64,000 nucleotides of DNA. Origin: Thermoanaerobaculia bacterium (GTDB taxonomy: Bacteria > Acidobacteriota > Thermoanaerobaculia > Multivoradales > JAHZIX01). A program made the position numbers and the translations under genes. This document shows, piece after piece, positions 9,287-33,911 of the stretch. Position 1 is the stretch's first letter, and the number at the start of each line of letters is the position of its first letter. The notes beneath the pieces were generated by a model, which saw nothing but the letters and a program-made list of their open reading frames with translations, was not told the origin of the DNA and ran no database searches. The stretch is taken from NCBI GenBank assembly GCA_027069135.1, contig JALXFE010000182.1, forward strand, positions 67,175 to 131,174, given 5' to 3'.

Positions 9287-9380
9287 AGGTCTTACCTAGG
9301 GGGCAGGTGCCGGCTTCAGCGCTCAGACCCTCGGGTGGCGGAGTCGGGATCTGCCGGATCGGCATACCTGGAGGACATCG

Positions 9381-12562: not shown

Positions 12563-12640
12563 CTAGACTCCACCCCAGCCCATCTACCTGCGTCCGCAGA
12601 GAAAAATCTGGATGCCGATGACCGGAAGGATAGCGAGAGC

Positions 12641-18300: not shown

Positions 18301-18989
18301 ATCTCGCCGGAGACGGCTTGAAACAAATCTTGCGCATAGGTGAGGACCGCCGGCCACTCCTCATCGACGGGCGGCTCTTCCCGAGTCAGGAAGCTATCGA
18401 AGGCCTCGAGCATTCCCAGAGTCCAGGCGTCCCCGGTGACCGGCTCGAGGAATTGTCGAGGAATCCACGGCGGGTGCAGGGGATCACCGTACAGCCGGCC
18501 GCTGCGGTCGAGGAGGGCACAGATCCAAAGAGGGTAGAGGAGGGTTTCCTTGCGATCGGAGATCCAGCCGTGGAAAGCCCGGCGGGAAAGGACCAGCGGA
18601 GCGACCAAGAGGGGAGCCCGGCGCAGGGGCGGTAGCTTTTTCTTCGCCTTTGGAGGTAGCTTTCGGCGTCGATCCTCTTCCGCGATTTCGAAGGATCGGT
18701 CGACGAATTCCAAAGGCACGGTACCGGCCAGGAGGTGGCCCCGGGAGAGCTCGAAGACTTCCAGCGAGCGCAGATTGGGGTTGATCAGGTCCGCGTCGGC
18801 CAGGCAAGCCCGGAAATACTTGAGCAGCTTAGGGGGAGTGATGCGAGCTGTCACCGGCGAAGCCTGGGAGGGCGAGGGGTTGGCGGGCGACGGCATGGGC
18901 AGGATCATATCCTCCGCCCGAGTCAGTAGGGGGAGGCCAAGGCTAGCCGAAGTCCCCGTCTTTCCACCGGCCAACGATGTGATCGGCAC
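15375..18989 (-). CDS. Large SF1 (Upf1/DNA2-like, AAA_11/AAA_12) helicase fused to a C-terminal PLD/HKD nuclease domain, with a ~320-aa N-terminal domain of unknown function.
   Basis: Walker A 'VNGPPGTGKTT'. Motif II 'LIVDEAGQV'. 'VIGDEHQIEPI'. 'LREHRRCVPQIISYCNQLVYGGQL' (helicase motif IV of the DNA2/NAM7 type). 'VAVSRAKDAFLVFGD' (motif VI). C-terminal HKD 'RIHSKLLAVDRRWYIDGSFNW'. An alternative start at the internal Met (MILPMPS, ~18911) would remove the 47-nt overlap with the upstream GMC gene. Confidence 0.8.
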   Translation of the reverse strand: MPITSLAGGKTGTSASLGLPLLTRAEDMILPMPSPANPSPSQASPVTARITPPKLLKYFRACLADADLINPNLRSLEVFELSRGHLLAGTVPLEFVDRSFEIAEEDRRRKLPPKAKKKLPPLRRAPLLVAPLVLSRRAFHGWISDRKETLLYPLWICALLDRSGRLYGDPLHPPWIPRQFLEPVTGDAWTLGMLEAFDSFLTREEPPVDEEWPAVLTYAQDLFQAVSGEMPSEYQLEDFEVLGPRFAVQQIEKGFRKPLIDLADFVLGIDPAPAVLQSLARAPGAKPAAGPDDPGAGGGLSHLGQMTGRFPLGPSQRQSLACALELRDGEILAVNGPPGTGKTTLVQSIVASLWVQRALEGSEPPLIHVCSTNNQAVTNVLDSFDAAAENEKEGLATRWLPEIRSYGLFFPAASQTRNEPEKKYQTAELAGNTLRGSLGEMETSRYVKEAHSHYLDRAQGVLGFSATGLTVDKVVTELRRQLRDSAADLKQRLESTARRAAKDVTKAWDPSSLDRRLGALEGLHQDRSKLRAELLGACRNLPWYLELFDFFPAVRRRRDRWLGWPLIERELPTPELGSSNFETTLLRHVRILLAPEEEEAELLRWIRMQLTTQDPESPLSEALASTASPIRAVPLFLDVGLRHRLFQLAARYWEGRWLQEMEELFSASEHAPMPLDQARLLRFRRLAKLTPALVSTLFRSPRVFDYYDREEGRAFPLIGALDLLIVDEAGQVAPEIGAAVLPLAKRAIVIGDEHQIEPIWGIHRRVDSANLRAAGLDAGSQDLDPFRCSSSSLLRLAQRATRWTASPRRDGLFLREHRRCVPQIISYCNQLVYGGQLEPHREALPSSPLPAFGWAHVRSEAKRVRGSWANAGEAWAIARWLHGRREEIEAFYDGRPLEELVGVVTPFSAQRTELIKALTPKSPGRRKEGKGAGKGGGSGKKDAVPIAEIGTVHTFQGAEREIMIFSPVYCAETAPKKRFFDDGKNMLNVAVSRAKDAFLVFGDMELFDPMSPGPSGVLATHIFEVPENEIGDVAPSPDLWRQAEAGKLPARQLLTLEDHREALREALRESQEQVLIVSPYLTRRAIEADGIDAALRQAHHRGVEVKILYCVDLHRRPEVAAEVAEDLRQCGAEVHPVPRIHSKLLAVDRRWYIDGSFNWLGAVRDTNDPYHRLETSTRLEFIGVDLQIDKAWKEVERRITGGRG

Positions 18990-20472
18990 TGCGGAAGCTG
19001 TTGGCCAGGAGGGTCAGGGTCGGCGCGGCTCCGCCGGAAGTCGGCATGAAGCTGCCGTCGACCACGAAGAGATTCGCTACATCGTGGGCTTGGCAATAAC
19101 CGTTGAGCACCGAGGTGGTCGGGTCGTCACCAGCCCGGCAGGTGCCCTGGACAAGATAGGAGGAGGTACCGCCGATGTCGGTGGCGGCGAGATCCACACC
19201 CCCCAGGTCGTCCAAGAGCTCGAAGGCCCGGTCCAGCAGCCACCGTCCAGCCCGCCGGTGGTGTCCCGGAAGATCGAGGTGAATGCGGGCGACCGGTAAG
19301 CCCCGGGCGTCGCGGGTCTCCGGATCCAAGTCCACGAAGGTACGCGAGTTCGGGAGGAAATCGTGGAAGACCTCGCAGTAGAGGGTCAGAGGGTTCTCCT
19401 TGGGGACGATTCCGAAGCGCAGAACCCCACCCTTGGCCAGGTCGGATACGCCTTCGGGAAGAAAATAATGATCCATGACGGACACGCCCAAGAACGGTGC
19501 CGCCGATTCCGGGGCCCCCGCGAGCCGTCCCTGCCCCATCGAGACACCATGGAATTGCAAATGGCGCCCCACCCGGCCGCCGTTGTTGGCCAGGCCGTTC
19601 GGGAAACGCGGTGATTTGGAAAGGAGGAGAAGGCGGGCGGACTCGATGGCGGAGCAGCTGACACACACGATCTTGGCTCGGACCTCGACTTCCTCGCCGC
19701 TGCTGTTGAAGTACACGCAGCCGGAAGCGCGGCCACGGCGGTCGACGGTCACCTCTTTGACTTGCGAGTGAGGTCGGATCTCGCAGCGGCCGGTGGCTTC
19801 AGCGCGGGCCAGGAGAGCCTCCGGGCTGGTGCCTCGGGCGCCGATCGGGCATCCGAGACCAGCGCATTCCTCGCAATACCGACAGGCCGGGCGGCCCTGG
19901 TACGGATGGGAGTTCACGGCCCGAGGCGTCGCAAAGGGGTGGAGGCTGCGAGCTTGGCAAGTCTCTTTGAGAGCGCTGGCGATGGGATGAGCCTCGAGGG
20001 GGGGCAACGGGTAGGGGCGGGAGCGGCGGCCGGCGAAGGGATCCTCACCGGCCTGACCGGCAACCCCGATCTCCCACTCGGCCCGGCTCAGGTAGGGCTC
20101 CAGTTCCTCGTAGGCGTAGGGCCAATCAGCCAATTCTTCATAGTCTCCGAAACGACTCTGCATTCGGAAATCATCCGGGAGAAAGCGGTAGAAATAGCCT
20201 CCCATATGGACCGTACCGCCCCCGACACACACAGCGCCCCAACCCAGCCGGGTTCGGATCGGGGAGAGGGTCTTAGAGGTGACAACGGTGTGGGGATCGT
20301 CGTCTACCGAAGGAAAGAAGTCTTCGGCCAACAGACCGTCCGAGTGTTCGAAATCCCGCCGGGAATAGCGGGGGCCTCTCTCCAATACCAGGACCTGGGC
20401 TCCGGCTCGCGCCAGGGTCAGGGCCAGAGCACCTCCTCCCGCTCCACTTCCGATGATAACGGCATCATGCAT
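18943..20472 (-). CDS. GMC-family FAD-dependent oxidoreductase.
   Basis: N-terminal 'DAVIIGSGAGGGALALTLARAGAQVLVLERG' FAD-binding fold. C-terminal GMC signature '...GTCRAGDDPTTSVLNGYCQAHDVANLFVVDGSFMPTSGGAAPTLTL'. Confidence 0.85.
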   Translation of the reverse strand: MHDAVIIGSGAGGGALALTLARAGAQVLVLERGPRYSRRDFEHSDGLLAEDFFPSVDDDPHTVVTSKTLSPIRTRLGWGAVCVGGGTVHMGGYFYRFLPDDFRMQSRFGDYEELADWPYAYEELEPYLSRAEWEIGVAGQAGEDPFAGRRSRPYPLPPLEAHPIASALKETCQARSLHPFATPRAVNSHPYQGRPACRYCEECAGLGCPIGARGTSPEALLARAEATGRCEIRPHSQVKEVTVDRRGRASGCVYFNSSGEEVEVRAKIVCVSCSAIESARLLLLSKSPRFPNGLANNGGRVGRHLQFHGVSMGQGRLAGAPESAAPFLGVSVMDHYFLPEGVSDLAKGGVLRFGIVPKENPLTLYCEVFHDFLPNSRTFVDLDPETRDARGLPVARIHLDLPGHHRRAGRWLLDRAFELLDDLGGVDLAATDIGGTSSYLVQGTCRAGDDPTTSVLNGYCQAHDVANLFVVDGSFMPTSGGAAPTLTLLANSFRSADHIVGRWKDGDFG

Positions 20473-20518
20473 ATTTATATCTCGCCTAGGTTTTCAAGTC
20501 TAAAGTATACTGTGCGCG

Positions 20519-21541
20519 ATGGAAGCGGACCCGAAAACAATGTCCCCGGATCTCAAGCTCCGGCGACTGGCCAATGCCTATCAACTCTCCCGCGCCGTCC
20601 AGGTGGCCGCCCGCCTGGGCATCGGCCGGTTGTTACGGGATGGACCGATGTCCTGTCCCGACCTGGCCCGGGCGACGGCTACGGACGGTGGAGTGCTGAT
20701 CCGGCTCCTGCGCTTCCTGGCCGAGCTCCAAGTGGTGGAGGAGCTCCCGGGCAACGTCTTTGGTCCCACCCCTGTTTCCAATGTACTGCATCGGGTGGAC
20801 AACATCGGCCAGGGAGAGGAAGCCTGGGCTACCTGGAGCGCCTTGCCGGAGGCCCTCGAGTCAGGCCGTCCGGTCTTCTCCGAGGTCCACGGCCAGTCGT
20901 TCTATGAATATGCCCAGTCCCACCCGCAGCAGGGAGCCAACTGGCGGGAGTCCACCGAGGCCTTTGCCGCTGGCCTCGCCCCGTCCCTGGTCGACGCTCT
21001 GGATCTGTCCGGTGCTGCGTCCGTGGTCGACGTCGGTGGGGGGCAGGGCACTCTCCTGGCCGAGATTCTGCGGCGATATCCGGACTGCCGAGGCATTCTC
21101 TTGGATCTCCCGGAGGTTGTCCGCGGGGCCCCAGCGGTTCTGAAGAAGGCCGGTATTTCCCGGCGCTGCGAGGTCTCGCCGGGAGATGCCCTCGAGGGCG
21201 TACCCGTCGGCGCTGACGTCTATTTATTGAGCCGAGTGCTCTTCAATTGGCAGGACGAGCAGGCCGTCCGCTTGCTCTCTCGTTGCCGCGGCGCTGTTAA
21301 CCCCGGAGGTCGGGTGATGGTGGCCGAAGTGCTGAGCCCTCCGGAGGGGACACCGGAGCGCCGAGCCTTGGCCGGGGCCGACCTGCATCATTTCCTGCTT
21401 TGGGGCAGCAAGTTTCGTACCTTAGCGGAGTACGAGACTCTCTTCGGCCGTGCTGGCCTGGTTCTCGCTGAAGTCCGTGAAGTGGGGGCCGGCGACTGGA
21501 GAATCCTGGAAGGAAGGATCGACCTAGGCTCTCGCCGGTAG
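20519..21541 (+). CDS. Class I SAM-dependent O-methyltransferase (COMT/Methyltransf_2-like, with N-terminal dimerisation domain).
   Basis: SAM motif 'VVDVGGGQGTLLAEILRRYPDCRGILLDLPEVV'. Typical length (340 aa) and layout. Confidence 0.8.
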   Translation: MEADPKTMSPDLKLRRLANAYQLSRAVQVAARLGIGRLLRDGPMSCPDLARATATDGGVLIRLLRFLAELQVVEELPGNVFGPTPVSNVLHRVDNIGQGEEAWATWSALPEALESGRPVFSEVHGQSFYEYAQSHPQQGANWRESTEAFAAGLAPSLVDALDLSGAASVVDVGGGQGTLLAEILRRYPDCRGILLDLPEVVRGAPAVLKKAGISRRCEVSPGDALEGVPVGADVYLLSRVLFNWQDEQAVRLLSRCRGAVNPGGRVMVAEVLSPPEGTPERRALAGADLHHFLLWGSKFRTLAEYETLFGRAGLVLAEVREVGAGDWRILEGRIDLGSRR

Positions 21542-21580
21542 ACGTATTTCCTACAATTTTTTGGAGGTGTTGAGAAGCTC

Positions 21581-24500
21581 ATGACGGACTTTCGGGCGGA
21601 TTCCTGGTATCGAGCCCTCACCTGGAGAGAACGGCGAAGGATCTTGGGCGGTTCGGCTGCTGCTAGAGGGGAGGAGCCCCCGGGGGGAGACCTTCTCGAG
21701 AGATGGCACTCCCAGCCACCCTTCAACCGGGGGGAGTTTTTCGGGGAGAGATGGGTCCAGGAAGGGCTCACGGAGGAGGCTTTCGCCCGCATCCTTAGCG
21801 CTACCCTCGGCGAGCTGCGCAACGGATCTATGGATTCGCTGGCTTGGGTCGAGGAGCTCGAGCGGGCCTTTGAGTCTCCGGACGAACTCCTGCTTTCTGA
21901 TCTGCAGCCGAGCCGCGGGGAGGAGAGCAGCCCGTTCCTCGCCATCGTCCGTCCGTTGCTCGCTTCCGGGTATCGGCGCCTACAACGCAGTTTTGATCGC
22001 AGCCCCGACGAGGTTCCCTGGCAGCCGGAGCGGGTCGGCCGTACCCTTATCTCTCACGTCGCGGGCCGGCTCTCCATGTTTCTGCGCCGGGCTCTGGTCC
22101 TGGAGCTGAATATCGCCGGCCTCGAAGGAGGCCTTGAGGGAGAAAACCCGCAGGAACGTTTCGGAGATTTTGTCCGGCGGCTGGGGGAGGAGGAGTGGGC
22201 TCTCGAAATTCTAGAGAGATATCCCGTCCTGACTCGAAAGGTCATCGAGTGTATCGACCAGGGTGTGTCTTTGGGGGAGGAGTTCTTGGAGCGCTTCGCT
22301 CAAGATTGGCCGAGCCTGGAGCGGAGATTCGGTAAGACCGCTGGACCGTCGTTGGGCTCGAGCTTGGGACAGCTCGTGGAGGCTCGGCCCGGTGCCGGAG
22401 ATTCCCATCGCGATGGCCGTTCGGTGATCCTTCTTAAATTCTCCAGTGGCCGAAGGCTGGTCTACAAACCGCGCTCCCTGGCGGCGGAACGGTGCTTCGC
22501 GGAGCTCTTGGATTGGATCGATGAGAAGGGGGCCGAGCCGGCCTTAAAAACCCTCGGTATTTTGGACCGGGGGGAGTACGGTTGGACCGAATTTGTCGAA
22601 CCCGCCGGCTGCGGGAGCGAATCCGCAGTGCGGAGGTTCTACCGCAGGCAGGGGGGCTATCTGGCGCTCCTCTATCTCCTCGATGCCAACGATATCCACT
22701 TCGAGAATCTCATCGCCGCGGGTGAGCACCCGTTCCTGATCGACCTGGAGACTCTTTTTCACCCCCCCATCGACATCATGGAAGAAAGGTATCCCCTTCT
22801 ACTACCGGGCAACGGTCTCTACCGCAGCGTCCACAATATCGGGCTGCTGCCCCACCGGATCTGGGGCGGTGAGGGGCAAGAGGAAGGGGTGGATCTCAGC
22901 GCCCTGGCGTCGGAGGCTGGGCAGAGGACCGCCCAGCGATTGCTGGATATCGACGGGCCTGGCACCGACGGCATGCGCTTCGTGCGCAGACCCGCCGAGA
23001 TTCCCGAGATGGATCACGCTCCGCGATTGGACGGCCGAACTCTCGTGGCCGCCGACTACGCCGATGCCATCCGATCCGGGTTCGAGGGCATCTATCGGCT
23101 CCTTCTCGCCCATCGTCGGGAGCTCCTGGCCGAGGGCGGACCGCTGGCAGCCTTCGCCGGGGTGGAGGTACGGGTGATCTTCCGGCCGACCTTCTACTAC
23201 ACCAGCGTCCTGGAGGAGAGCTTCCATCCGGATGTTTTGCAGGATGCCCTGGAGCGGGATCTGCTCTTCGAGAGTCTGTGGGTGGAGGTCGAGAGCCGCC
23301 CGCGGTTGGCTGCGCTGATCGCGGAGGAGCAGCGGGATCTGGGCCGGACGGATATCCCGGTCTTCACAACCCGGCCCGACTCCCGGGATCTGTGGACCGG
23401 CTTCGGGAAACGTCTTCCGGACTATTGGCGGGAGACCCCGTTGAGCCGGGCGGAGGCGAAGCTCGAGGCCCTCGATGAAGCGGACCTGGGCCGGCAGACC
23501 TGGTTGATCGAGACGTCCCTCAAGACCGTTCGCCGTCCGGAAGAAACGCCCGAGCGGGAGACATATCCTTTTCAGCAAGCCCCCACGGAGGCCACGGCAG
23601 AAGAGCTCCTGAAAGGTGCCGTGGCCGCGGCGAGACGTTTGGAAGGGCTGGCCTTTCGCGGGCCCCAGGGCGACGCATCCTGGTCGATCGTGGCCCCGGT
23701 GGGCACCGGCCATTGGGTCTACGGCCCCGCGGAACCGGGGCTCTACCAGGGGTTGGCGGGGATCGCCCTTTTTCTCGCCTATCTCGGGGCGACAACGGGG
23801 GAGACGTGGTCCACGGATCTGGCCCGGGCTGCCTGGACCACCCTCCGGCACCAGCTGCGGTCCGGACAGATCGCCTTGCCCGGCGTCGGCGCCTTTACCG
23901 GCTGGGGAGGAATCCTCTACAGCGCGGTCCATCTGGGGGTGCTGTGGGACGACGAAGCACTGATTGAAGAGGCCGAAGAGATGGTGGCGGCTCTGCCCGA
24001 GAGAATCGCCCAGGACTCCTGGCACGATGTGGTCGGAGGAGCTGCTGGCTGCCTGCTGAGCCTGCTGAGCCTGCACCGGGTGCGGCCCTCCGAGGGCACC
24101 CGGCGGGCCGCGATCCTGTGCGGCGAGCGGCTGCTGGCCAACGCCAAGACCCTGGAGGTGGGATGCGGGTGGGTGGTGGAGGCCGCAGGTCCGCAGCCCC
24201 TTTCCGGGCTCTCCCACGGTGCCGCGGGCATCGCCCTGGCACTCTTCGAGCTCTCAGATCTGAGTGGGGAAGAGCGTTTCCGGGATCTGGCGCTGGGAGC
24301 CATCGACTACGAGCGCACCCTTTATTCGCCAGCCGATGAGAATTGGATCGACCTGCGGGAGGGGGAGCGCCCGGAAGGGACCTTTCATGGCTCCGGCCAT
24401 GATTTCGTGGTTGGTTGGTGCCATGGCGCACCGGGTATCGGTCTGGCCCGGTTGGCGGGTCTCCGGCATCTCGACGATGCCGCGGTACGCGAGGAAATCG

Positions 24501-24838
24501 CCATCGCGCTCAAGACCACCCGAGCGCTGGGTTTCGGCGCCAACCATAGCCTGTGTCATGGAGATCTCGGGAATCTGGACCTCCTGCTCATCGCCAGCCA
24601 GGTTCTCAAGGATTCCGATCTTCGGACGGCGACCTACCACCTCGCCGGAGGAACCCTCGCCGGCATAAGTCGGCACGGCTGGCTCTACGGTTATCCATCG
24701 AAAGTCGAGCCTTTGGGTCTGATGGTCGGGCTGGCGGGCATCGGATATCAGCTGCTCCGGCTAGCGGCGCCGTCCCGGGTACCGTCGGTTCTCATCTTGG
24801 AGCCGCCGGTGGGATCCGGAGGGGTTGCCGAGAATTGA
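21581..24838 (+). CDS. lanM: Class II lanthipeptide synthetase LanM (N-terminal dehydratase DUF4135 + C-terminal LanC-like cyclase).
   Basis: 1085 aa. Kinase-like dehydratase motif 'NDIHFENLIAAGEHPFLIDLETLFHPP'. LanC zinc-ligand motifs 'GWCHGAPGIGLA' and 'CHGDLGNLDLLL', plus 'SHGAAGIALALFE'. Confidence 0.9.
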   Translation: MTDFRADSWYRALTWRERRRILGGSAAARGEEPPGGDLLERWHSQPPFNRGEFFGERWVQEGLTEEAFARILSATLGELRNGSMDSLAWVEELERAFESPDELLLSDLQPSRGEESSPFLAIVRPLLASGYRRLQRSFDRSPDEVPWQPERVGRTLISHVAGRLSMFLRRALVLELNIAGLEGGLEGENPQERFGDFVRRLGEEEWALEILERYPVLTRKVIECIDQGVSLGEEFLERFAQDWPSLERRFGKTAGPSLGSSLGQLVEARPGAGDSHRDGRSVILLKFSSGRRLVYKPRSLAAERCFAELLDWIDEKGAEPALKTLGILDRGEYGWTEFVEPAGCGSESAVRRFYRRQGGYLALLYLLDANDIHFENLIAAGEHPFLIDLETLFHPPIDIMEERYPLLLPGNGLYRSVHNIGLLPHRIWGGEGQEEGVDLSALASEAGQRTAQRLLDIDGPGTDGMRFVRRPAEIPEMDHAPRLDGRTLVAADYADAIRSGFEGIYRLLLAHRRELLAEGGPLAAFAGVEVRVIFRPTFYYTSVLEESFHPDVLQDALERDLLFESLWVEVESRPRLAALIAEEQRDLGRTDIPVFTTRPDSRDLWTGFGKRLPDYWRETPLSRAEAKLEALDEADLGRQTWLIETSLKTVRRPEETPERETYPFQQAPTEATAEELLKGAVAAARRLEGLAFRGPQGDASWSIVAPVGTGHWVYGPAEPGLYQGLAGIALFLAYLGATTGETWSTDLARAAWTTLRHQLRSGQIALPGVGAFTGWGGILYSAVHLGVLWDDEALIEEAEEMVAALPERIAQDSWHDVVGGAAGCLLSLLSLHRVRPSEGTRRAAILCGERLLANAKTLEVGCGWVVEAAGPQPLSGLSHGAAGIALALFELSDLSGEERFRDLALGAIDYERTLYSPADENWIDLREGERPEGTFHGSGHDFVVGWCHGAPGIGLARLAGLRHLDDAAVREEIAIALKTTRALGFGANHSLCHGDLGNLDLLLIASQVLKDSDLRTATYHLAGGTLAGISRHGWLYGYPSKVEPLGLMVGLAGIGYQLLRLAAPSRVPSVLILEPPVGSGGVAEN

Positions 24839-24862
24839 CATTGAAAATATCTACGGTATAAA
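24835..24862 (+). promoter_or_regulatory. Sigma70-like promoter (TTGACA-16 nt-TATAAA) immediately after, and overlapping, the lanM stop, positioned to drive the precursor gene.
   Basis: TTGACA at 24835-24840, TATAAA at 24857-24862, 16-nt spacer, in an AT-rich 170-bp intergenic region. Confidence 0.4.
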
Positions 24863-24965
24863 ATTAGCTTATTGTGATCTGTCGACTAATCTGACGCCTG
24901 AATGGTCGCCTGGGCGGGCGATAGGCGGACGATTGGACGACGTGAAGTTTCTGTCGGGAGGAATC

Positions 24966-25005
24966 CCTCCTTCTGGCGAGAACCTTCGCACTATCTAGAA
25001 GGAGG
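24966..25005 (+). promoter_or_regulatory. Hairpin that pairs the lanA Shine-Dalgarno (GAAGGAGG) with an upstream anti-SD (CCTCCTTCTGG).
   Basis: 24966-24976 cctccttctgg pairs with 24995-25005 ctagaaggagg: an 11-bp stem with one G.U pair and an 18-nt loop. ATG of lanA is at 25011. Confidence 0.45.
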
Positions 25006-25010
25006 CTTGG

Positions 25011-25235
25011 ATGAAGAAACAGGAAATCGCTCGTGCGTGGAGAGATCCCAAGTACCGCCGGAGCCTGAGCACCGAGCAGAAGGCTCAGCTACCGACCCAT
25101 CCGGCAGAGTGGATGGTGGGGGTCGAGGACGACGTCCTCGCGAGCGTCACCGGTGGCTGTTGCTACCCGGGGAACAATACCGTCACGTTGTGTACCGGCA
25201 TCTGTTCCCCTTGCCCGCCGGTGCATTGCTACTAG
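25011..25235 (+). CDS. lanA: Lanthipeptide precursor (LanA) with an NHLP-like leader ending in a double-glycine and a Cys-rich 25-aa core.
   Basis: 74 aa: MKKQEIARAWRDPKYRRSLSTEQKAQLPTHPAEWMVGVEDDVLASVTGG | CCYPGNNTVTLCTGICSPCPPVHCY. 'ARAWRDPKYRRSL' resembles the NHLP leader motif (AKAWKDPaFkqeL). GG precedes the core. SD GAAGGAGG sits 5 nt upstream. Located between lanM and a C39-peptidase ABC transporter. Confidence 0.8.
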   Translation: MKKQEIARAWRDPKYRRSLSTEQKAQLPTHPAEWMVGVEDDVLASVTGGCCYPGNNTVTLCTGICSPCPPVHCY

Positions 25236-25265
25236 GCTCTTGAGGCTTTAGCTTTCGGCGGGTAA

Positions 25266-25300
25266 GACCACTGACGGGCCTTACCCGCCGGAGTCGGAGC
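25266..25300. terminator. Hairpin between convergent lanA and lanT. Candidate bidirectional terminator.
   Basis: cggcgggtaag (25266-25276) pairs with cttacccgccg (25290-25300): an 11-bp stem with a 13-nt loop. No clear U-tract. Confidence 0.35.
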
Positions 25301-25313
25301 CACGCCAGGGCCC

Positions 25314-27542
25314 TCAACTTCCAGAGTCCTCCCGCCTGCGCAGCTGCGCATCGACCAGGCGGGCGTAGGCTCCCGGTCTCTCCATCAACTCCTGATGGGT
25401 TCCCCTCTCGACGATCCTCCCTCCCTCCATTACCAGAATCTGATCGGCGGCCATGATGGTGCTGAGCCGATGGGCGATGACGATGCGGGTACAGCGCAGC
25501 TCGGCCAAAGCACTTTGGATCCGTGATTCAGTGAGGGCATCGAGGTTGCTGGTGGCTTCGTCGAGGAGCAGAATGGCGGGGCGATGAAGGAGGGCGCGGG
25601 CGAGGGCGAGGCGCTGGCGCTGGCCGCCGGAAAGGGAAGCGCCGCCGTCCGGCAGCATGGTGTCGAAGCCCATGGGCATGGCCAGGATTTCTTCTTCGAT
25701 CTGGGCCGTTCGGGCGGCTTCCCGGACCCGGTCCAAGGACGCCTCGGGATCTGCCAGGGCGATGTTCTCCCGGATCGATCCACCGAAGAGAAAGGGGTGC
25801 TGGAGGACGACGCCGAGCCGCGAGCGCAACGCCTGCAAATCGAGGCCCGCCAGGTCTTGTCCGTCGTAGAGGATCCGTCCCGAGGTCGGTCGGTAGAGCC
25901 CGACGCAGAGATGGGCGAGGGTTGATTTTCCGGCCCCGGAGGAACCCACCAACGCGACGAAGCTTCCGGGCTCGATGTCGACGGATACTTCCTGCACCAC
26001 CTTCGGCGCCTCGGCGCTATAACGGAAGCTGACGGTCTCCAAGAGGATGCCGCCGCGAAGCTTGGCAACGGCCGCCCCCTTTTGTCCGTCTCGCTCCCTA
26101 GGGGTTTCCATGACGTCCTGGATGCGTTCCAGATAGCTCCCCAGGAGTTGTAGCTGAACGCCGGTCGAGACCAGGGTAGAAAGGGGGCCGAGGAAGCCCA
26201 CCGCCAGGGCGTTGAGAGCCAGCATCGTGCCCAGAGTGAGCTCACCCTCGAGGACCAGGAATCCCCCGAAGACCAGGACGATCAGGGGCGAGGCGGTGGC
26301 CAGGGCGGAGAGCAGGGAGTCAAAGAGGGCGTTCAGGCGGCCCCGGGCCAGGGAGACGTTGAGCTCGTCGGTGAAAAGGCCGGACCAATGCTCCACCGCT
26401 CTGCGCTCTGCCCCTACGGTCTTGAGGGTTTCAATCCCCGTCAACATCTGCACCTGAAAGGCCCGGGACCGGGCCTCGGTGCTGAGAGATTCCGCCATGA
26501 GAGCCCGTTGCCGGCGACGGGTAGCCAGGAACAATCCGACCCGCAGAGCTCCGAGGAAGAGCACCAGGAGCGCGATGGGCACGTGAGTCAGAAACATCAG
26601 GACGAGGTAGAGACCGACGAGCACACCGTCGAGGATCCCCGAGAGGGCGCCGGAGGTGAGAATCTCCCGGATGGTCGAGTTGCTGTTGAGGCGCATCATG
26701 AGATCGCCAGCGGAGCGCTGCTGAAAAAAGGCGTAGGGGAGCTCGACCAGATGATCGAGAAACTCCAACGTCATTCGCCAATCGAGCTGAGTGCGCAGCT
26801 GGAGGAGCAAGTAGGCGCGGACGAGAGAAGAGAGAAAGTCGAAGACGACGATGGCTCCAAGGCCGACGGCAGCCACCGTCAGCAGGCCGTAATCTCCCCG
26901 GGGCACAACCCGGTCCACCAGCAAGGCGGTCCAGAGAGGAAGGGCCAAAGCCAAGAGCTGGAGGAGTACCGACATCACCAGGAGGCGCGAGAGAAGCCCG
27001 GAGTGCTCGAGGATCCGACGCAGGTAGCGCCCGACACCTCGGGAGCGGGGGCCGGAAGTCTCGAAGTCCTCTCCCGGTCGCAGGGTCAATGCGATGCCGG
27101 TGAAGGATCGTTCCAGCTCCCCGCGGGAGACGGTCCGTTTCCCGGCCGTCGGATCGACGATCCGGGCGCCCTTGCCGGTCAGTTTTTCCAGAACCACGAA
27201 ATGATCCATCTGCCAGTGAAGGATCGATCCCGGCTCGAGGAACTCGAGATCTCCGACTTCCTCGATGCGGACCCCCCGGCCCTGCAACCCGAATCGACGG
27301 GCGGTCTCGAGGAGAGTCCGGGCGTCCGCGCCGTCGCGGCCGATGCCGCAGGCATTCCGGACTTCGTCCAGGCCCACCGGCTTTCCGAAGTAGGCCAGGA
27401 CCATGGCCAGGCAGGCGGGCCCACAGTCGGTGGCGGAGGTCTGCAGGATCGGCAGAAGGGTCCGACGGCGCCGAGCACCCAGGCCCATGAGGAGGGGGAA
27501 TCGCCTCGCCAGGGCGTCGAAGAAGCGGGAGCTACTCTTCAT
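25314..27542 (-). CDS. lanT: Bifunctional peptidase-C39/ABC transporter (LanT/SunT-type bacteriocin processing-export protein).
   Basis: N-terminal C39 domain 'QTSATDCGPACLAMVLAYFG' (catalytic Cys) with downstream 'HFVVLE'. Six-TM domain. Walker A 'GSSGAGKST'. Signature 'LSGGQRQRLALARAL'. Walker B 'ILLLDEATS'. Confidence 0.9.
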   Translation of the reverse strand: MKSSSRFFDALARRFPLLMGLGARRRRTLLPILQTSATDCGPACLAMVLAYFGKPVGLDEVRNACGIGRDGADARTLLETARRFGLQGRGVRIEEVGDLEFLEPGSILHWQMDHFVVLEKLTGKGARIVDPTAGKRTVSRGELERSFTGIALTLRPGEDFETSGPRSRGVGRYLRRILEHSGLLSRLLVMSVLLQLLALALPLWTALLVDRVVPRGDYGLLTVAAVGLGAIVVFDFLSSLVRAYLLLQLRTQLDWRMTLEFLDHLVELPYAFFQQRSAGDLMMRLNSNSTIREILTSGALSGILDGVLVGLYLVLMFLTHVPIALLVLFLGALRVGLFLATRRRQRALMAESLSTEARSRAFQVQMLTGIETLKTVGAERRAVEHWSGLFTDELNVSLARGRLNALFDSLLSALATASPLIVLVFGGFLVLEGELTLGTMLALNALAVGFLGPLSTLVSTGVQLQLLGSYLERIQDVMETPRERDGQKGAAVAKLRGGILLETVSFRYSAEAPKVVQEVSVDIEPGSFVALVGSSGAGKSTLAHLCVGLYRPTSGRILYDGQDLAGLDLQALRSRLGVVLQHPFLFGGSIRENIALADPEASLDRVREAARTAQIEEEILAMPMGFDTMLPDGGASLSGGQRQRLALARALLHRPAILLLDEATSNLDALTESRIQSALAELRCTRIVIAHRLSTIMAADQILVMEGGRIVERGTHQELMERPGAYARLVDAQLRRREDSGS

Positions 27543-28176
27543 CGCCGTCCAAGAATTCCGCGAGCGGGGGCAACAGGCGCGACAGGATGCGCTCGGAACG
27601 AATCAGGATCTCGACGGTTCCCTGGAGCCCATGGTGGTACGGGAGAGAATCGTTGCCGATCTCGAAGCTCTCCCCCGGAAGCCGGGCGAAGGCGATAGCC
27701 AAGGGACCTGAAAGGGTCATGGCGTCGGCAAGGTCGGTGTCCAGGAGGCGGTCCAGCTCAAGAGGTCCTAGAATCCGCTCCTCGACCCGGTCTACGGTCA
27801 GTCGCTGGTAGCTGGTGCCGTAGCCTCGCAGGCTCAGATGCAGGGGCATACCAGGGCCGAGGACGGGACGATAGTGGCCGGGAAACACAGCGATGAGGGT
27901 GGGGCTCGAAACCTTGCTCCGGTCCGGCATTAGCACCATAGCGGTGCCCTGGGCATATTCCCCGATTGTCCCCAAGACCCCGAAGAGTATCGCGCTGGCC
28001 ACCACCAGGAGCACAAGCCCTTCGACCCAGCGGATCCAGCGGGGAGAAATCTCCAACGGACCGGTCAAGCGGCGATGCCCGGCAGCATGGGCCGCGACCG
28101 CTTGGCGGCGGAAGAGGCCCTGGCGCGGCTTTTCCGGAGCAGAGCTTGTTGCCGGACGAGATCGCTGTTCCATCAT
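27532..28176 (-). CDS. Short HlyD/CvaA-like secretion accessory protein (membrane fusion protein partner of LanT).
   Basis: 'LFRRQAVAAHAAGHRRLTGPLEISPRWIRW' resembles the CvaA/LcnD N-terminal motif (FRqEAl...). Single TM 'GLVLLVVASAILFGVLG'. Only 214 aa, lacking a long coiled coil. 11-nt overlap with the lanT start. Confidence 0.6.
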   Translation of the reverse strand: MMEQRSRPATSSAPEKPRQGLFRRQAVAAHAAGHRRLTGPLEISPRWIRWVEGLVLLVVASAILFGVLGTIGEYAQGTAMVLMPDRSKVSSPTLIAVFPGHYRPVLGPGMPLHLSLRGYGTSYQRLTVDRVEERILGPLELDRLLDTDLADAMTLSGPLAIAFARLPGESFEIGNDSLPYHHGLQGTVEILIRSERILSRLLPPLAEFLDGDEE

Positions 28177-28484
28177 TGATGAGCTTATCCTAATCTCTCG
28201 AGTAAATAGAGAAGACTTGGCGGTGGGCGGAGCCTTGCGTACCCCATCTTGCTAGAGTACAGTCCTTATCACCCCTCCTTATCTTTGGAAGCCGGGTTTC
28301 GGCTTCGAGAGGCTACCCAGAAGATTGTTTGACCGAAAGCTGAGTGTGCGCTTGCGCACGTCTGTATGTCGCTATACACTCGGCCAACAGATTTCAGAGA
28401 GCTCGTAGAGCCGGAGAAGCGGCGGTGGATTTCTTACGAGCCGCAAGATCATGCCGCAGTCCTTAGCGGCGGGAAGGGGAGGAG

Positions 28485-30203
28485 ATGACGGAACCCACAA
28501 GACGGGTGAAACGTGATCGGCGCAGCCTGTTTTCTGCTGTGACGACCGGCTTGGCTCAGCGCTTGGATTCACGCTCCGCCAACGCGCAGCGTCGCCATTT
28601 CATGCGCACACCGCTCAATCCGGAATGGCCGAACGGGGAAGACCAGCGAGCGGTGCCGGGCCCGCCGTCGGCGGCGGTGATCGCCCTCAACCGGATGGGC
28701 TTCGGGCCGAGACCGGGGGACTTGGATGCCTTCAACGTTTTAGGCGCCGACGACACCCAGCGGATGCAAGCCTACGTCGCCCAGCAATTGGATCCCGACA
28801 GCCTTACGGATACCGATCTCGAGACCCGCCTTGCAGCGGCGAATTACACCACCCTCAACAAGACTCTCCTGGAGCTCTGGACTGATCATGTCGTCGCGGA
28901 TCCACCATACGAGGAACGGATCCGTCCCATGACGGAGACCGAGAGCATGACCTTTCTACGAGGGATCTTCAGCAAGAAGCAGCTCTTCGAAGTCATGGTT
29001 GAGTTCTGGCATAACCACTTCAGTATTTTCGGCCGGGAATTTGAGATCGCCCCTGTGTGGGTGCATTACGATCGGGACGTCATCCGCGCCAACGCGTTGG
29101 GCAACTTTCGTCAGATGCTGGGCGCCGACGCCGCCAGCACGGCCATGTTGCTCTACCTGGACAACTACGCCAACTCCGCCGACGGCCCCAACGAAAACTA
29201 TGCTCGGGAGCTCTTCGAGCTACATACCCTTGGCGCTGAGAATTATTACGGCCTGATCCCGCGCTCCCAGGTACCCACGGACGGCAACGGTGTCCCCGTG
29301 GGGTTCGTGGACGAAGATATCTTCGATGCGACCCGGGCGCTGACCGGTTGGACCGTGCGCAACCGGGATTGGGATCCGGATTTCGGCGACACCGGGGAGT
29401 TCTTTTACTACGCTCCCTGGCATGACGACGGTCCGAAAGCCTTCTTGAATGTCGTGATCGGTGGCGCTCAGCCTCCCATGAAGGACGGCCTGGACCTTTT
29501 GGATGCCCTGGCGGCCCATCCCGGGACCGGCCGATTCATCGCCCGCAAGTTGTGCCGCAGATTGATCGGGGACAGCCCGCCCCAGAGTCTCATCGACCAG
29601 GCGGCGGCGGTGTTCACCGCTCAGAAAGACGCACCGGATCAGATCAAACAGGTGCTGCAGACCATTCTGCTTTCGCCGGACTTTCTTTCTGCCTGGGGGG
29701 ATAAGGTCAAGCGGCCCTTCGAGATCGCCGTCAGCGCCTTGCGCATCGGTGACTCCCAGCTCAATTTCCACCTGGATGACGGAGATTCCGGAACCTTCCA
29801 ATGGCTCTTCCGGCAGACCGGCCATCACCTCTTCGACTGGCATCCTCCGAACGGCTATCCGGATTTCAAAGTGGCCTGGCAGAGCACGACCCCCCGGGTC
29901 ATGAGCTGGCGCTTGGTCAACTGGCTGGTGGACTCCGAGGACGACCTGGCCAATTACTACATGGACCTGGTGGGGGCGACGCCGGTGGGTGTGCGTTCCG
30001 CCAACGCCATAGTCGATTTTTGGGTAGACCGTGTCTTCGGTCGCACCATCGAACCGGTGAATCGTGCTGAGTTCGTCGATTTTATGGCCCAGGGTTTCCT
30101 CCCGAATTTGGATTTGCCCTTGGACACCGACGCCGACACCCAGAGCCGCCTGAGATCTCTCGTCGCTCTCATGTTCATGTCGCCGGAGTTTCTCTGGCGA
30201 TGA
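28485..30203 (+). CDS. DUF1800-family protein.
   Basis: ~570 aa, placed directly upstream of a DUF1501 gene (the canonical DUF1800/DUF1501 pair). Assignment rests on family resemblance and pairing. Confidence 0.7.
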   Translation: MTEPTRRVKRDRRSLFSAVTTGLAQRLDSRSANAQRRHFMRTPLNPEWPNGEDQRAVPGPPSAAVIALNRMGFGPRPGDLDAFNVLGADDTQRMQAYVAQQLDPDSLTDTDLETRLAAANYTTLNKTLLELWTDHVVADPPYEERIRPMTETESMTFLRGIFSKKQLFEVMVEFWHNHFSIFGREFEIAPVWVHYDRDVIRANALGNFRQMLGADAASTAMLLYLDNYANSADGPNENYARELFELHTLGAENYYGLIPRSQVPTDGNGVPVGFVDEDIFDATRALTGWTVRNRDWDPDFGDTGEFFYYAPWHDDGPKAFLNVVIGGAQPPMKDGLDLLDALAAHPGTGRFIARKLCRRLIGDSPPQSLIDQAAAVFTAQKDAPDQIKQVLQTILLSPDFLSAWGDKVKRPFEIAVSALRIGDSQLNFHLDDGDSGTFQWLFRQTGHHLFDWHPPNGYPDFKVAWQSTTPRVMSWRLVNWLVDSEDDLANYYMDLVGATPVGVRSANAIVDFWVDRVFGRTIEPVNRAEFVDFMAQGFLPNLDLPLDTDADTQSRLRSLVALMFMSPEFLWR

Positions 30204-30248
30204 ACCGCCCGACATCCAGATGAAAGAGTTGAGAGGAAGGGGAGAGAA

Positions 30249-31607
30249 ATGACCGAGATCACCCGACGCGGATTCGTCGCCGGCTGTTGCGCAGGGATTG
30301 CAGCCATGTCCGGCTCTCGTTTTAACACCATGGCCTTCGCGGATCCGGCCTTGAATCAGGAAACCCTGGTCGTCCTTTTTCTGCGGGGCGGGGTCGATGG
30401 CCTGAATCTCATCCCCCCCATCGGCGGGGCGGATCGGGGGCATTACGAGACGGCCCGGCCGCAGCTAGCGGTCCCTGATACGGGAGCCGGGGCCGCCCTA
30501 CCCTTGGGCGCGGAGCCCTTCGGCCTGCATCCCTCGGCGGCACCGTTGCACGAGCTCTATCAGGACGGTCGCTTGGCATTGGTGCATGGTGTCGGCCAGG
30601 GAGAACCGAACCGTAGTCATTTTGACGCCATGCAATTTATCGAGCTCGGAACCCCGGGGCAGAAGGGTACGCCGACGGGCTGGCTGGCCCGCTATCTGGC
30701 GACCGCTTCGAACCTCCCGGCGGAGATCATCATGCCGTCTTTGGCCGTCGGCAATCTGCAGACGACCTCGTTGCTGGGCGATTTCGAGACGGTGAACATG
30801 AGTAGTGCTGATCAATTCAACATGAATATCGGTCCGTGGCGGTGGCGCCCGTCCCAGCGTCAATCGCTCCGTCACCTCTACGAGGCGGATACCACTTGGC
30901 TCCATGCTTCCGGTCTCCAATCGCTCAACGCTCTGGACGTCGTGGAGCTCAACGTCAGCGGTGATTACACGCCGTCAAACGGTGCCGTATATCCCACCGG
31001 TCAGTTTGGCGATCATCTCCAGCTGATCGCCCGGATGATCAAGCTCGACCTGGGGTTGACCGTAGGTACTCTGGATCTGGGGGGTTGGGATACCCACAAC
31101 CAGCAGGGCCAGGGATCCGGTGGTTACTTCGCGGGCATCGTTCAAGAGCTGGCGGAGGGCCTGGCAGCCTTCTACGCCGACCTTGACGGCAATGGTGCCG
31201 AGAACTTCACCAGCCGCCTGACGGTGGTGGTGCAGAGTGAATTCGGCCGCCGGGTTGCCCAGAACGCGGACAACGGCACCGACCATGGCTTCGGCAATCC
31301 GATGATGGTCTTGGGCGGCAACGTCAACGGCGGTCTCCACGGAACCTTCCCGGGTCTGGCACCGGGCCAGCTCTACGAAGGGATCGACGTCGCCGTCACC
31401 ACGAATTACCGTCGGATCCTGAGTGAGATTCTCATACGACGCATGTGCAACCCCAACCTCGGCGCCATCTTCCCCGGGTACACCGGGTACGCGCCGCTGG
31501 GAGTGGTCCAGGGTACGGACTTGCCACCGGTCCTCGGCGACACGATCTTTGCCGACGGTTTTGAAAGCGGCGACACTTCCGGCTGGAGCGGGGCCATCGG
31601 CGGCTGA
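30249..31607 (+). CDS. DUF1501-family protein (sulfatase-like fold) with Tat signal.
   Basis: Twin-arginine signal 'TRRGFVAGCCAGIAAMSG'. 'GGWDTHNQQ' motif. C-terminal 'DGFESGDTSGW' tail. Confidence 0.8.
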   Translation: MTEITRRGFVAGCCAGIAAMSGSRFNTMAFADPALNQETLVVLFLRGGVDGLNLIPPIGGADRGHYETARPQLAVPDTGAGAALPLGAEPFGLHPSAAPLHELYQDGRLALVHGVGQGEPNRSHFDAMQFIELGTPGQKGTPTGWLARYLATASNLPAEIIMPSLAVGNLQTTSLLGDFETVNMSSADQFNMNIGPWRWRPSQRQSLRHLYEADTTWLHASGLQSLNALDVVELNVSGDYTPSNGAVYPTGQFGDHLQLIARMIKLDLGLTVGTLDLGGWDTHNQQGQGSGGYFAGIVQELAEGLAAFYADLDGNGAENFTSRLTVVVQSEFGRRVAQNADNGTDHGFGNPMMVLGGNVNGGLHGTFPGLAPGQLYEGIDVAVTTNYRRILSEILIRRMCNPNLGAIFPGYTGYAPLGVVQGTDLPPVLGDTIFADGFESGDTSGWSGAIGG

Positions 31608-33715: not shown

Positions 33716-33911
33716 CGGGGCATTGTATGCGGTGGAGTCTCCGGGGGGAAACCTTGGCGGGCTTTGCGCCGAGGCGGCAACCGTTTGGATTCTGCCCGAG
33801 CCATTTCGATGGCAGGTATTCCTTGATGTATTATCAGGCTGTGTAGAGAAATTCGAAGAGGTGACCGCAAGGGATGAGGGCCTCCGCCGTCTTCATCGGA
33901 GGTGCCGAACA

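Follow-up and report, generated by a model that had tools for sequence, protein, structure and literature searches.

Gene content of the locus

We analysed a 64,000-nucleotide stretch of DNA, hereafter the window, from a Thermoanaerobaculia bacterium (contig JALXFE010000182.1, positions 67,175 to 131,174). Positions 18943-28176 of the window probably form a six-gene cluster whose product is a class II lanthipeptide with a thiazole, of the tha/the type, and which includes a methylation step in addition. Two Thermoanaerobaculia clusters of this type have been published (PMC13083261; Nature, February 2026): tha, encoding ThaA, ThaM and ThaO, and the, encoding TheA, TheO, TheM, TheB and TheN. The gene content of the window locus, its orthology to these systems, its intact catalytic residues and its conserved synteny are observed directly.

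An earlier note, made from the sequence alone, had described positions 20519-28176 as a class II lanthipeptide cluster of five open reading frames (ORFs), and all five were found where it had placed them. Its class assignment holds: the locus has an intact LanM synthetase, a precursor rich in Cys, a C39-ABC exporter whose catalytic residues are present, and a short HlyD-related partner. The region it gave is right as far as it goes. Its left side is incomplete, since the conserved cluster includes a gene for an oxidoreductase of the GMC family (18943-20472), which lies just outside those boundaries and had been missed. In loci retrieved by way of the precursor, such a GMC gene recurred beside the methyltransferase, LanM and LanA. 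With Pfam and NCBIfam scores far above the cut-offs, these are genes and not chance ORFs. The features of the locus are as follows:

18943-20472, minus strand: GMC-family oxidoreductase dependent on flavin adenine dinucleotide (FAD), 509 amino acids (aa); Pfam GMC_oxred_N/C, FAD-binding N-terminus
20473-20518, no strand: divergent spacer of 46 bp between the GMC and methyltransferase genes, a head-to-head pair
20519-21541, plus strand: methyltransferase dependent on S-adenosylmethionine (SAM), 340 aa; PF00891 'O-methyltransferase family 2' and dimerisation domain
21581-24838, plus strand: LanM synthetase, 1085 aa; TIGR03897, DUF4135, LANC_like
24835-24864, plus strand: sigma-70-like promoter TTGACA-18-TAAAAT upstream of lanA, overlapping the lanM stop codon; a consensus match only
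25011-25235, plus strand: lanA precursor gene, 74 aa, 172 bp downstream of LanM; TIGR03898
25256-25290, no strand: GC-rich hairpin between the convergent lanA and ABC genes, from RNA folding
25314-27542, minus strand: C39-peptidase/ABC exporter, 742 aa, convergent to lanA; Pfam Peptidase_C39, ABC_membrane, ABC_tran
27532-28176, minus strand: short HlyD-like protein, 214 aa, distant homology; overlaps the ABC gene start by 11 nt

The motifs quoted in the earlier note could all be located, namely DIHFENLIAAGEHPFLIDLE (LanM residues 371-390), GWCHG (945) and SLCHG (990) in the synthetase, and ARAWRDPKYRRSL and GG followed by CCYPGNNTVTLCTGICSPCPPVHCY in the precursor.

A ThaO/TheO orthologue beside an intact synthetase

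In the published systems, a GMC protein of the ThaO/TheO type turns Gly(-1)-Cys1 of the GGC motif in class II lanthipeptide precursors into a thiazole, as established by a shift of -20.03 Da, isotope labelling, C1A and Gly mutants, and nuclear magnetic resonance, and ThaM installs two thioether rings (PMC13083261). TheO worked with TheA alone in E. coli, and acts without LanM when several residues part the GGC from the first Ser/Thr (PMC13083261). Thiazole formation by a flavoprotein independently of adenosine triphosphate was first reported in February 2026, for these two clusters only, and the authors found no conserved neighbourhood (PMC13083261). The thiazole enzymology is thus already known, having been published for these two proteins.

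The window GMC protein shares 64% identity with ThaO, and also with TheO, over the approximately 400 aa printed in the tables of PMC13083261, and 62% identical over its full length to the product of the TheO gene on contig DATEIO010000468.1 (locus L006). By this measure it is the ThaO/TheO orthologue of the window, an assignment that would place the cluster in the thiazole-lanthipeptide type of PMC13083261. The earlier claim of novelty applies to the product of the window, which is uncharacterised; it does not apply to the kind of system, since the GMC protein is a ThaO/TheO orthologue.

The LanM synthetase matched TIGR03897 with 934 bits (cut-off 304), DUF4135 (PF13575) with 417 bits and LANC_like (PF05147) with 220 bits. 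Its best solved relative is LicM2 (E=1e-126), and it is 40% identical to ThaM and 39% identical to TheM. The earlier note had made its case depend on the catalytic residues being found on alignment. Alignment with CylM gave conserved dehydratase residues at Asp274/His276, Lys296, Asp371/His373/Asn376/Asp388 and Arg531/Thr537, and zinc ligands at Cys947 (GWCHG) and Cys992/His993, with an SHG at 878 (His879); all CylM catalytic residues and zinc ligands are present.

The lanA precursor consists of a leader of residues 1-49 (25011-25157) and a 25-aa core, CCYPGNNTVTLCTGICSPCPPVHCY (25158-25232), with 6 Cys, 3 Thr and 1 Ser; the GGC motif spans the junction at residues 48-50 (25152-25160). Unmodified, the core has a monoisotopic mass of 2644.07 Da. 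The first Ser/Thr of the core is at position 8, six residues past the CC pair with which the core begins. Ten homologues of the peptide were found at 45-78% identity. The core Ser/Thr and Cys are conserved among them, TGGC and CxPCPPxxC are invariant, and the core subfamily has the consensus GG-CC-x-PG...C-S-A-x-C-[ST]-P-C-P-P-x-x-C-[FY]. GGC is invariant in all 11 family members. The 'GG', which had been taken as the cleavage motif, is therefore not solely that; it is also part of the invariant thiazole-forming GGC motif.

Peptides of the mersacidin family carry a lipid II-binding ring motif, CTxTxEC. The core CCYPGNNTVTLCTGICSPCPPVHCY has no CTxTxEC motif and no Glu, and no second LanM or LanA was found within the 64-kb window. 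A two-component lantibiotic was rejected as a candidate, since LanM and LanA each occur once in the 64 kb and the lipid II motif is missing. The window peptide is thus neither a mersacidin-like antibiotic nor part of a two-component system.

The ThaO-like clade in other genomes

A genome scan was carried out with one genome per species and the window GMC protein as reference. Proteins at least 56% identical to the window GMC form a clade at loci L005-L017 and at L057, which is fragmented; identity falls to 37% or less in the next relatives. The clade scan thus covers 13 loci on 12 contigs and one fragmented copy. A LanM and/or a mersacidin-leader precursor lies beside the GMC gene at 13 of these 14 loci, and GGC stands at the leader/core junction in every precursor that adjoins a ThaO-like GMC gene. 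The enzyme therefore defines a distinct clade that is nearly always linked to LanM and a GGC precursor. In each of three tests of membership the window falls, by sequence, within this ThaO-type thiazole-lanthipeptide family.

The hosts are Thermoanaerobaculia, other Acidobacteriota, metagenome-assembled genomes (MAGs) of Holophagales, and Alphaproteobacteria, some of them coral-associated. One clade member is cultured: the coral isolate Eilatimonas milleporae DSM 25217 (L017). Since this organism carries a full variant of the cluster, the native product could be isolated from it and the open questions about the pathway are testable. The L017 locus (NZ_REFR01000013.1, 8500-17600) contains a methyltransferase gene of the window type, a TheB-like gene, the GMC gene, four GGC precursors and LanM. 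Part of the locus is duplicated internally: 12573-12983 encodes an N-terminal piece of LanM, and 13009-13350 a C-terminal piece of the GMC protein.

Among solved structures, the GMC protein is closest to the catalytic subunits of fructose and glucose dehydrogenases (PDB 7w2j, 8xcn, 6a2u), at E~1e-52. In these dehydrogenases a Cys-rich stretch binds a 3Fe-4S cluster. Cys197, Cys203 and Cys208 of the window GMC, which are invariant in the clade, align with this stretch in fructose dehydrogenase (FDH) in the spacing C-x5-C-x3/4-C. FDH residue 'H1147' (H1147A mutant, PDB 8k6j) aligns with Tyr439 in the GGTSSY motif (434-439), which is also invariant in the clade. The main text of PMC13083261 was found to contain no mention of Fe-S. 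We treat the putative Fe-S cysteines and Tyr439 as alignment-level leads only.

A methyltransferase with an altered active site is paired with the GMC gene

The methyltransferase matched Pfam Methyltransf_2 (PF00891) with 140 bits, together with the Dimerisation domain, and its SAM motif and fold are present. Its start may be Met8 at 20540, as in the database version of 333 aa. The closest structures are small-molecule O-methyltransferases (6c5b, DtpM, CalO6, AlpH and MmcR), all five of which have an LH[DN]W/VHDW-type motif (His, Asp/Asn, Trp). In O-methyltransferases of PF00891, the His of the LHDW-type motif is the general base. The window protein has VLFNW at this position, so that His is replaced by Phe. 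This His is missing in 21/21 full-length homologues at identities of at least 45%, and also in five cluster-linked homologues from other loci, four of which are more distant; it is kept in most homologues at identities of at most 42%.

The divergent arrangement of the GMC and methyltransferase genes was found in 10 of 11 loci (the window, L001, L004, L014, L015, L017, L086, L087, L088 and L089). Where no TheB-like gene intervenes, the head-to-head spacers are 42-140 bp (L001, L014, L015, L086, L087, L088, L089); in L004 and L017 a TheB-like gene sits between the two. The exception among the 11 loci is L085, which has the methyltransferase, LanM and two GGC precursors, and in which the GMC gene is absent. 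In L088 and L089 the pair occurs with no LanM or LanA on the recovered contigs, indicating that it behaves as a unit. The synteny with the GMC gene kept in related loci bears out the earlier proposal that the adjacent methyltransferase is a member of the cluster. Approximately half of these clusters carry this altered-active-site methyltransferase head-to-head with the GMC gene. It is an unreported partner: the word 'methyltransferase' appears nowhere in PMC13083261 or its supplements.

Some of these loci deserve description in their own right. The Tara Pacific sample that yielded the published tha cluster is also the source of L085 (TARA_SAMEA6034818_METAG-scaffold_1, 2501-11017). This locus encodes a methyltransferase without the His, two GGC precursors (GGCSFWGACPTSAICSPCPPLQCH and a variant), a LanM, and a GAF-C39-ABC fusion of 1090 aa; no GMC gene lies within 10 kb. 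The divergent pairs of L088 (7198-9996) and L089 (4303-6930) are 64-69% and 53-56% identical to those of the window, respectively, which suggests that the GMC-methyltransferase pair can be encoded apart from its substrate genes. In L090 (Dormibacteraeota MAG GCA_036378395.1, 8158-11711), a distant His-less methyltransferase (RVLFNWDD, 40% identical) adjoins three small ORFs (65, 88 and 88 aa), an M50 peptidase-like gene and an ABC-2 transporter. L090 may be a cluster of a different kind for a ribosomally synthesised and post-translationally modified peptide (RiPP), with the same type of methyltransferase.

Known RiPP methyltransferases of PF00891 include CaoSC, which N,N-dimethylates the N-terminus of cacaoidin, and StspM, which methylates the C-terminal carboxyl of a lasso peptide (PMC11447909). 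A literature check for the catalytic residues of CaoSC and StspM found no statement on them. Since the usual His base has been lost, we infer from the sequence that the window enzyme more probably acts on a carboxylate, thiolate or amine than on a hydroxyl. No RiPP-specific NCBIfam model scored above its cut-off on the methyltransferase (ApyS gave 29.8 bits against 400).

We also considered whether the methyltransferase accompanies a particular precursor type. A link to cores beginning with CC or C-x-C-P agreed with the first six loci and was dropped after L085 (GGCS), L086 (GGCT) and L014 (GGCG). An [ST]PCPPxxC tail is present in 7/7 methyltransferase-linked precursor types; it occurs also in L008, L012 and L013, which have no methyltransferase, and a variant tail, CTPCAP, is found in 2 further clusters of the latter kind (L016 carries CTPCAP). 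The association of the methyltransferase with this tail (one-sided Fisher test, p ~0.04, calculated by hand and without phylogenetic correction) is a weak lead.

Two other accounts of this enzyme have to be weighed. In the first, the GMC protein and the methyltransferase are a two-enzyme module whose modification is other than, or goes beyond, the published single thiazole; for example, the second Cys of the CC pair could be oxidised and captured by methylation, or the heterocycle or a terminus could be methylated, giving a product distinct from those of ThaA and TheA. The frequency of the divergent pair, its occurrence without LanM in L088 and L089, the tail common to all methyltransferase-linked precursors and the CC after GG in the window's own precursor family are consistent with this account. 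So are the two active-site changes: the methyltransferase clade is without the catalytic His, and the catalytic His of FDH aligns with Tyr in the GMC clade. However, ThaO and TheO work without a methyltransferase, the CC pair is not universal among methyltransferase-linked precursors (L085, L086 and L014), L085 has the methyltransferase and no GMC gene, and the [ST]PCPP tail is found in the methyltransferase-free L008, L012 and L013 too, with the CTPCAP variant in L016. On balance we judge this account rather doubtful.

In the second, the enzyme is an O-methyltransferase for small molecules that has nothing to do with the peptide, and the cluster comprises only the GMC protein, LanM and the transporter. 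Its closest solved structures are indeed all natural-product O-methyltransferases acting on small molecules, and the scan with RiPP-specific models points the same way. Yet two phyla keep the synteny with the GMC and LanM genes, a loss of the phenol-activating His that is specific to the clade speaks against a phenol O-methyltransferase of the classical kind, and CaoSC and StspM show that PF00891 enzymes can methylate RiPP termini (PMC11447909). This makes the second account improbable.

Leader type, exporter and HlyD-like partner

The leader had earlier been assigned to the NHLP (nitrile hydratase leader peptide) type. This assignment fails: the leader matched TIGR03898, the mersacidin/lichenicidin type, with 55.0 bits (E=5.8e-15, cut-off 23.5) over model positions 1-44 of 44, and gave no TIGR03793 match at E<=10 (cut-off 50.9 bits). 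An NHLP/Nif11 leader was rejected by the model scans, in which neither leader model was matched. There is a faint resemblance to nitrile hydratase alpha (15.4 bits against a cut-off of 249.85, E=0.0099), and the published precursors themselves score 18 bits (ThaA) and 13 bits (TheA) on TIGR03793. The window leader aligns throughout with those of ThaA and TheA, in the pattern MKKxxVxRAW[RK]D...LP..PA...D..L..[IV][ST]GGC (Supplementary Tables 10 and 11 of PMC13083261). It also shows the classical double-glycine pattern, with V-4, L-7, V-12 and GG.

The exporter matched PF03412 with 103 bits, plus PF00664 and PF00005. Its C39 domain occupies residues 32-157 (27072-27449) and was rightly described as intact, as the full catalytic set of Gln34, Cys40, His114 and Asp130 is present. 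The ABC part has the Walker A motif GSSGAGKS (533) and the signature LSGGQ (637). The best NCBIfam model for the transporter is the NHLP-associated TIGR03796, at 649 bits and below the cut-off of 853.

The 214-aa protein gave no Pfam (E<=10) or NCBIfam match. An all-against-library HMMER search found 801 relatives, of which the long ones carry HlyD_3, HlyD_D23 and Biotin_lipoyl_2. Against the 314-aa HlyD protein P0054 it matches in two segments: residues 16-76 correspond to the N-terminal tail and transmembrane segment and residues 75-211 to the C-terminal barrel, and approximately 115 aa of lipoyl/hairpin sequence of P0054 are missing. Its orthologue in L001 is 39% identical, and its gene is translationally coupled to the ABC gene by the 11-nt overlap. 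Other short HlyD forms of 190-236 aa exist, and some relatives are fused to GAF domains. The relatives and the two-segment match thus bear out the proposed short HlyD-related partner, which, as judged from this homology, is a real HlyD-family derivative lacking the lipoyl/hairpin part.

An ordinary NHLP-leader class II lanthipeptide, in which LanM is the sole modifier, C39 cuts after GG to give a 25-residue product and the oxidoreductase is unrelated, would suit the LanM, the GG leader with its hydrophobic -4/-7/-12 pattern, the intact C39-ABC, the choice of TIGR03796 as best ABC model and the faint nitrile hydratase alpha resemblance, but is highly improbable given the TIGR03898 score and the lack of a TIGR03793 match, a TIGR03796 score below its cut-off, and a GMC gene that in both Acidobacteriota and Alphaproteobacteria is kept beside LanM and LanA, and whose orthologues encode enzymes proven on this precursor type.

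Proposed pathway and points against it

The steps of the proposed pathway are as follows. The 74-aa precursor would be transcribed from its own promoter, as the consensus match suggests, and its mersacidin-type leader would recruit LanM, which appears intact. LanM would phosphorylate and eliminate up to four Ser/Thr residues (core Thr8, Thr10, Thr13 and Ser17), to which Cys thiols would add to form thioether rings, in a topology that can at present only be predicted. The ThaO-like FAD enzyme, if it acts as its orthologues do, would oxidise Cys50 (core Cys1) and cyclise it onto the carbonyl of Gly49 (Gly-1), giving a thiazole and a mass change of -20 Da. This step may not need LanM, because the first Ser/Thr lies six residues past the CC pair, following the reasoning of PMC13083261. 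The SAM-dependent methyltransferase would then add one or more methyl groups to the peptide, at a presumed site within it, as its synteny suggests. The C39-ABC transporter and the short HlyD-like partner would export the product, with the leader removed at a presumed site.

A bolder version is possible, and we put it forward tentatively. The head-to-head GMC and methyltransferase genes would encode a dedicated two-enzyme module, yielding either a methylated thiazole-lanthipeptide or a further oxidised, methylated Cys derivative at CC, of an undescribed type. As the thiazole consumes the GG/C scissile bond, C39 would cut at a non-canonical site, and the product would keep Gly(-1) as an aminomethyl-thiazole N-terminus, perhaps the methyl acceptor.

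Several observations weigh against the thiazole-lanthipeptide interpretation. Core position 2 is Cys in the window; clade precursors have C, G, S or T there. TheA has Gly2, and G2A impaired TheO; ThaA has Ser2 (Dha2). Acceptance of the window core, with its Cys2, by the GMC enzyme is thus not guaranteed. The window is also without a TheB-like small subunit, which is present in approximately half of the related clusters, and the thiazole predicted on the window peptide rests on orthology. As the pair in L088 and L089 has no LanM or LanA in its contig, the methyltransferase could have a substrate other than the peptide.

A further difficulty lies in the mature N-terminus. A Gly(-1)-Cys1 thiazole would remove the GG/C amide bond that a C39 peptidase normally cuts. 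Three possibilities can be named: competition between thiazole formation and cleavage, leader cleavage at another site, or the action of a different protease once the peptide has been exported. The published peptides were released by trypsin or AspN, and the supplement of PMC13083261 merely lists a C39 peptidase in the cluster; its main text has no mention of a C39 domain or of double-glycine cleavage. Because the bond used for the thiazole is the one at which the C39 peptidase of the same cluster would be expected to act, the mature N-terminus is in question throughout the family. On the practical side, these enzymes may serve as tools to install thiazoles and methyl groups in peptides.

Expression signals and flanking genes

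The promoter at 24835-24864 matches 11/12 positions of the sigma-70-like consensus and is the sole such site in 18500-28700, as a consensus match only. A ribosome-binding site, GAAGGAGG, lies at 25000-25007, 3 nt before the lanA ATG. Compared with shuffled controls, the 5' untranslated region of lanA (24866-25015, ~145 nt) has a more stable fold (-60 kcal/mol, z=-3.4). A GGGAGG...CCUCC hairpin within it, located immediately upstream of the real GAAGGAGG ribosome-binding site, has no Rfam match and could be a regulatory element. After the lanA stop codon, 25236-25313 also folds stably (-41.8 kcal/mol, z=-3.8), and the hairpin at 25256-25290 is likely a bidirectional terminator. A simple terminator scan did not list this hairpin because it has no T-run. 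Rfam gave no match anywhere in the window.

The genes on either side (a helicase-PLD gene at 15375-18989 and DUF1800/DUF1501 genes at 28485-31607) were considered as members and rejected, as this neighbourhood is not conserved in L001 and other loci. The gene on the left, 15375-18989 (minus strand), has a product of 1204 aa that combines SF1 helicase domains (AAA_11/AAA_12) with a PLD-like nuclease domain at the C-terminus and that, by NCBIfam, weakly resembles helicase-like proteins of anti-phage type (PLuB, Hhe, ProA). The gene shares 47 nt with the 3' end of the GMC gene, a position that is unconserved in related loci. Directly right of the cluster is the DUF1800/DUF1501 pair (28485-31607, plus strand), which related loci do not conserve beside the cluster, and farther right a 928-aa CHAT-domain protein (33678-36464, plus strand), which is not a conserved neighbour either.

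Elsewhere in the window are four paralogous FG-GAP/ASPIC(UnbV) repeat proteins (907-4437, 7388-9286, 9381-11174 and 45100-47181, plus strand), one of them TPR-fused, and a possible multihaem cytochrome at 4434-7391. A similar FG-GAP/UnbV gene flanks the cluster at L085 too.

Comparison with known systems

Fructose and glucose dehydrogenases share with the window GMC protein a Rossmann FAD motif and the Cys-rich stretch, at approximately 30-35% identity as estimated by eye. They differ in that the catalytic His/Asn of FDH are Tyr439/Ala in the window protein, in that the window protein has no cytochrome subunit, and in the substrate, here a peptide cysteine. TheB-like small subunits accompany some members of the ThaO clade.

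The phenol O-methyltransferases of PF00891 share the SAM-binding fold of the window methyltransferase, which is without their catalytic His. CaoSC and StspM (PMC11447909) belong to the same Pfam family and fold class, a likeness drawn from the family and not from direct sequence comparison; both act on peptide termini, not on phenols.

The NHLP/Nif11 class II systems (prochlorosin-like; TIGR03793/TIGR03798) have in common with the window a short W-x-D-P-x-Y-like N-terminal resemblance and the nearest ABC model, TIGR03796. The window leader, however, matches neither model, and the ABC protein is below the TIGR03796 cut-off. The mersacidin/lichenicidin-alpha/haloduracin-alpha group (TIGR03898) is closer, as the window leader fits its model and LicM2 is the best solved LanM relative. 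Its known members are without a GMC protein or thiazole, and the window core is without CTxTxEC.

The tha cluster belongs to 'Ca. Moanaiibacterium opulentum', a coral-associated member of the Thermoanaerobaculia (PMC13083261). The window resembles it in having a leader of the mersacidin type with GGC at its end, a core rich in Cys, LanM, the GMC protein (64% over ~400 aa) and a C39/ABC export function. The cores are unrelated: that of ThaA has ~16 aa (CSGICTYGGWP.CFCC) and that of the window 25 aa (CCYPGNN...CSPCPPVHCY), with Ser2 in the former and Cys2 in the latter. The gene order also differs, thaO being downstream of thaM whereas the window GMC gene is upstream and divergent. The window has a methyltransferase, and none is mentioned for tha in PMC13083261 or its supplements.

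The the cluster lies in a soil Thermoanaerobaculia MAG (GCA_035278895.1), on contig DATEIO010000468.1 (L006). It has TheB and TheN; the window has no TheB-like small subunit or TheN acetyltransferase, and instead carries the methyltransferase, the C39-ABC exporter and the short HlyD. The TheA core is unrelated to the window core, with Gly2 (G2A impaired) as against Cys2. The two clusters have in common the MKKxDVxRAWRD...GGC leader, with identities of 62-64% for the GMC protein, 39% for LanM and 40% for the precursor. As in the, several residues separate the GGC from the first Ser/Thr in the window peptide, the feature that the authors tied to LanM-independent thiazole formation.

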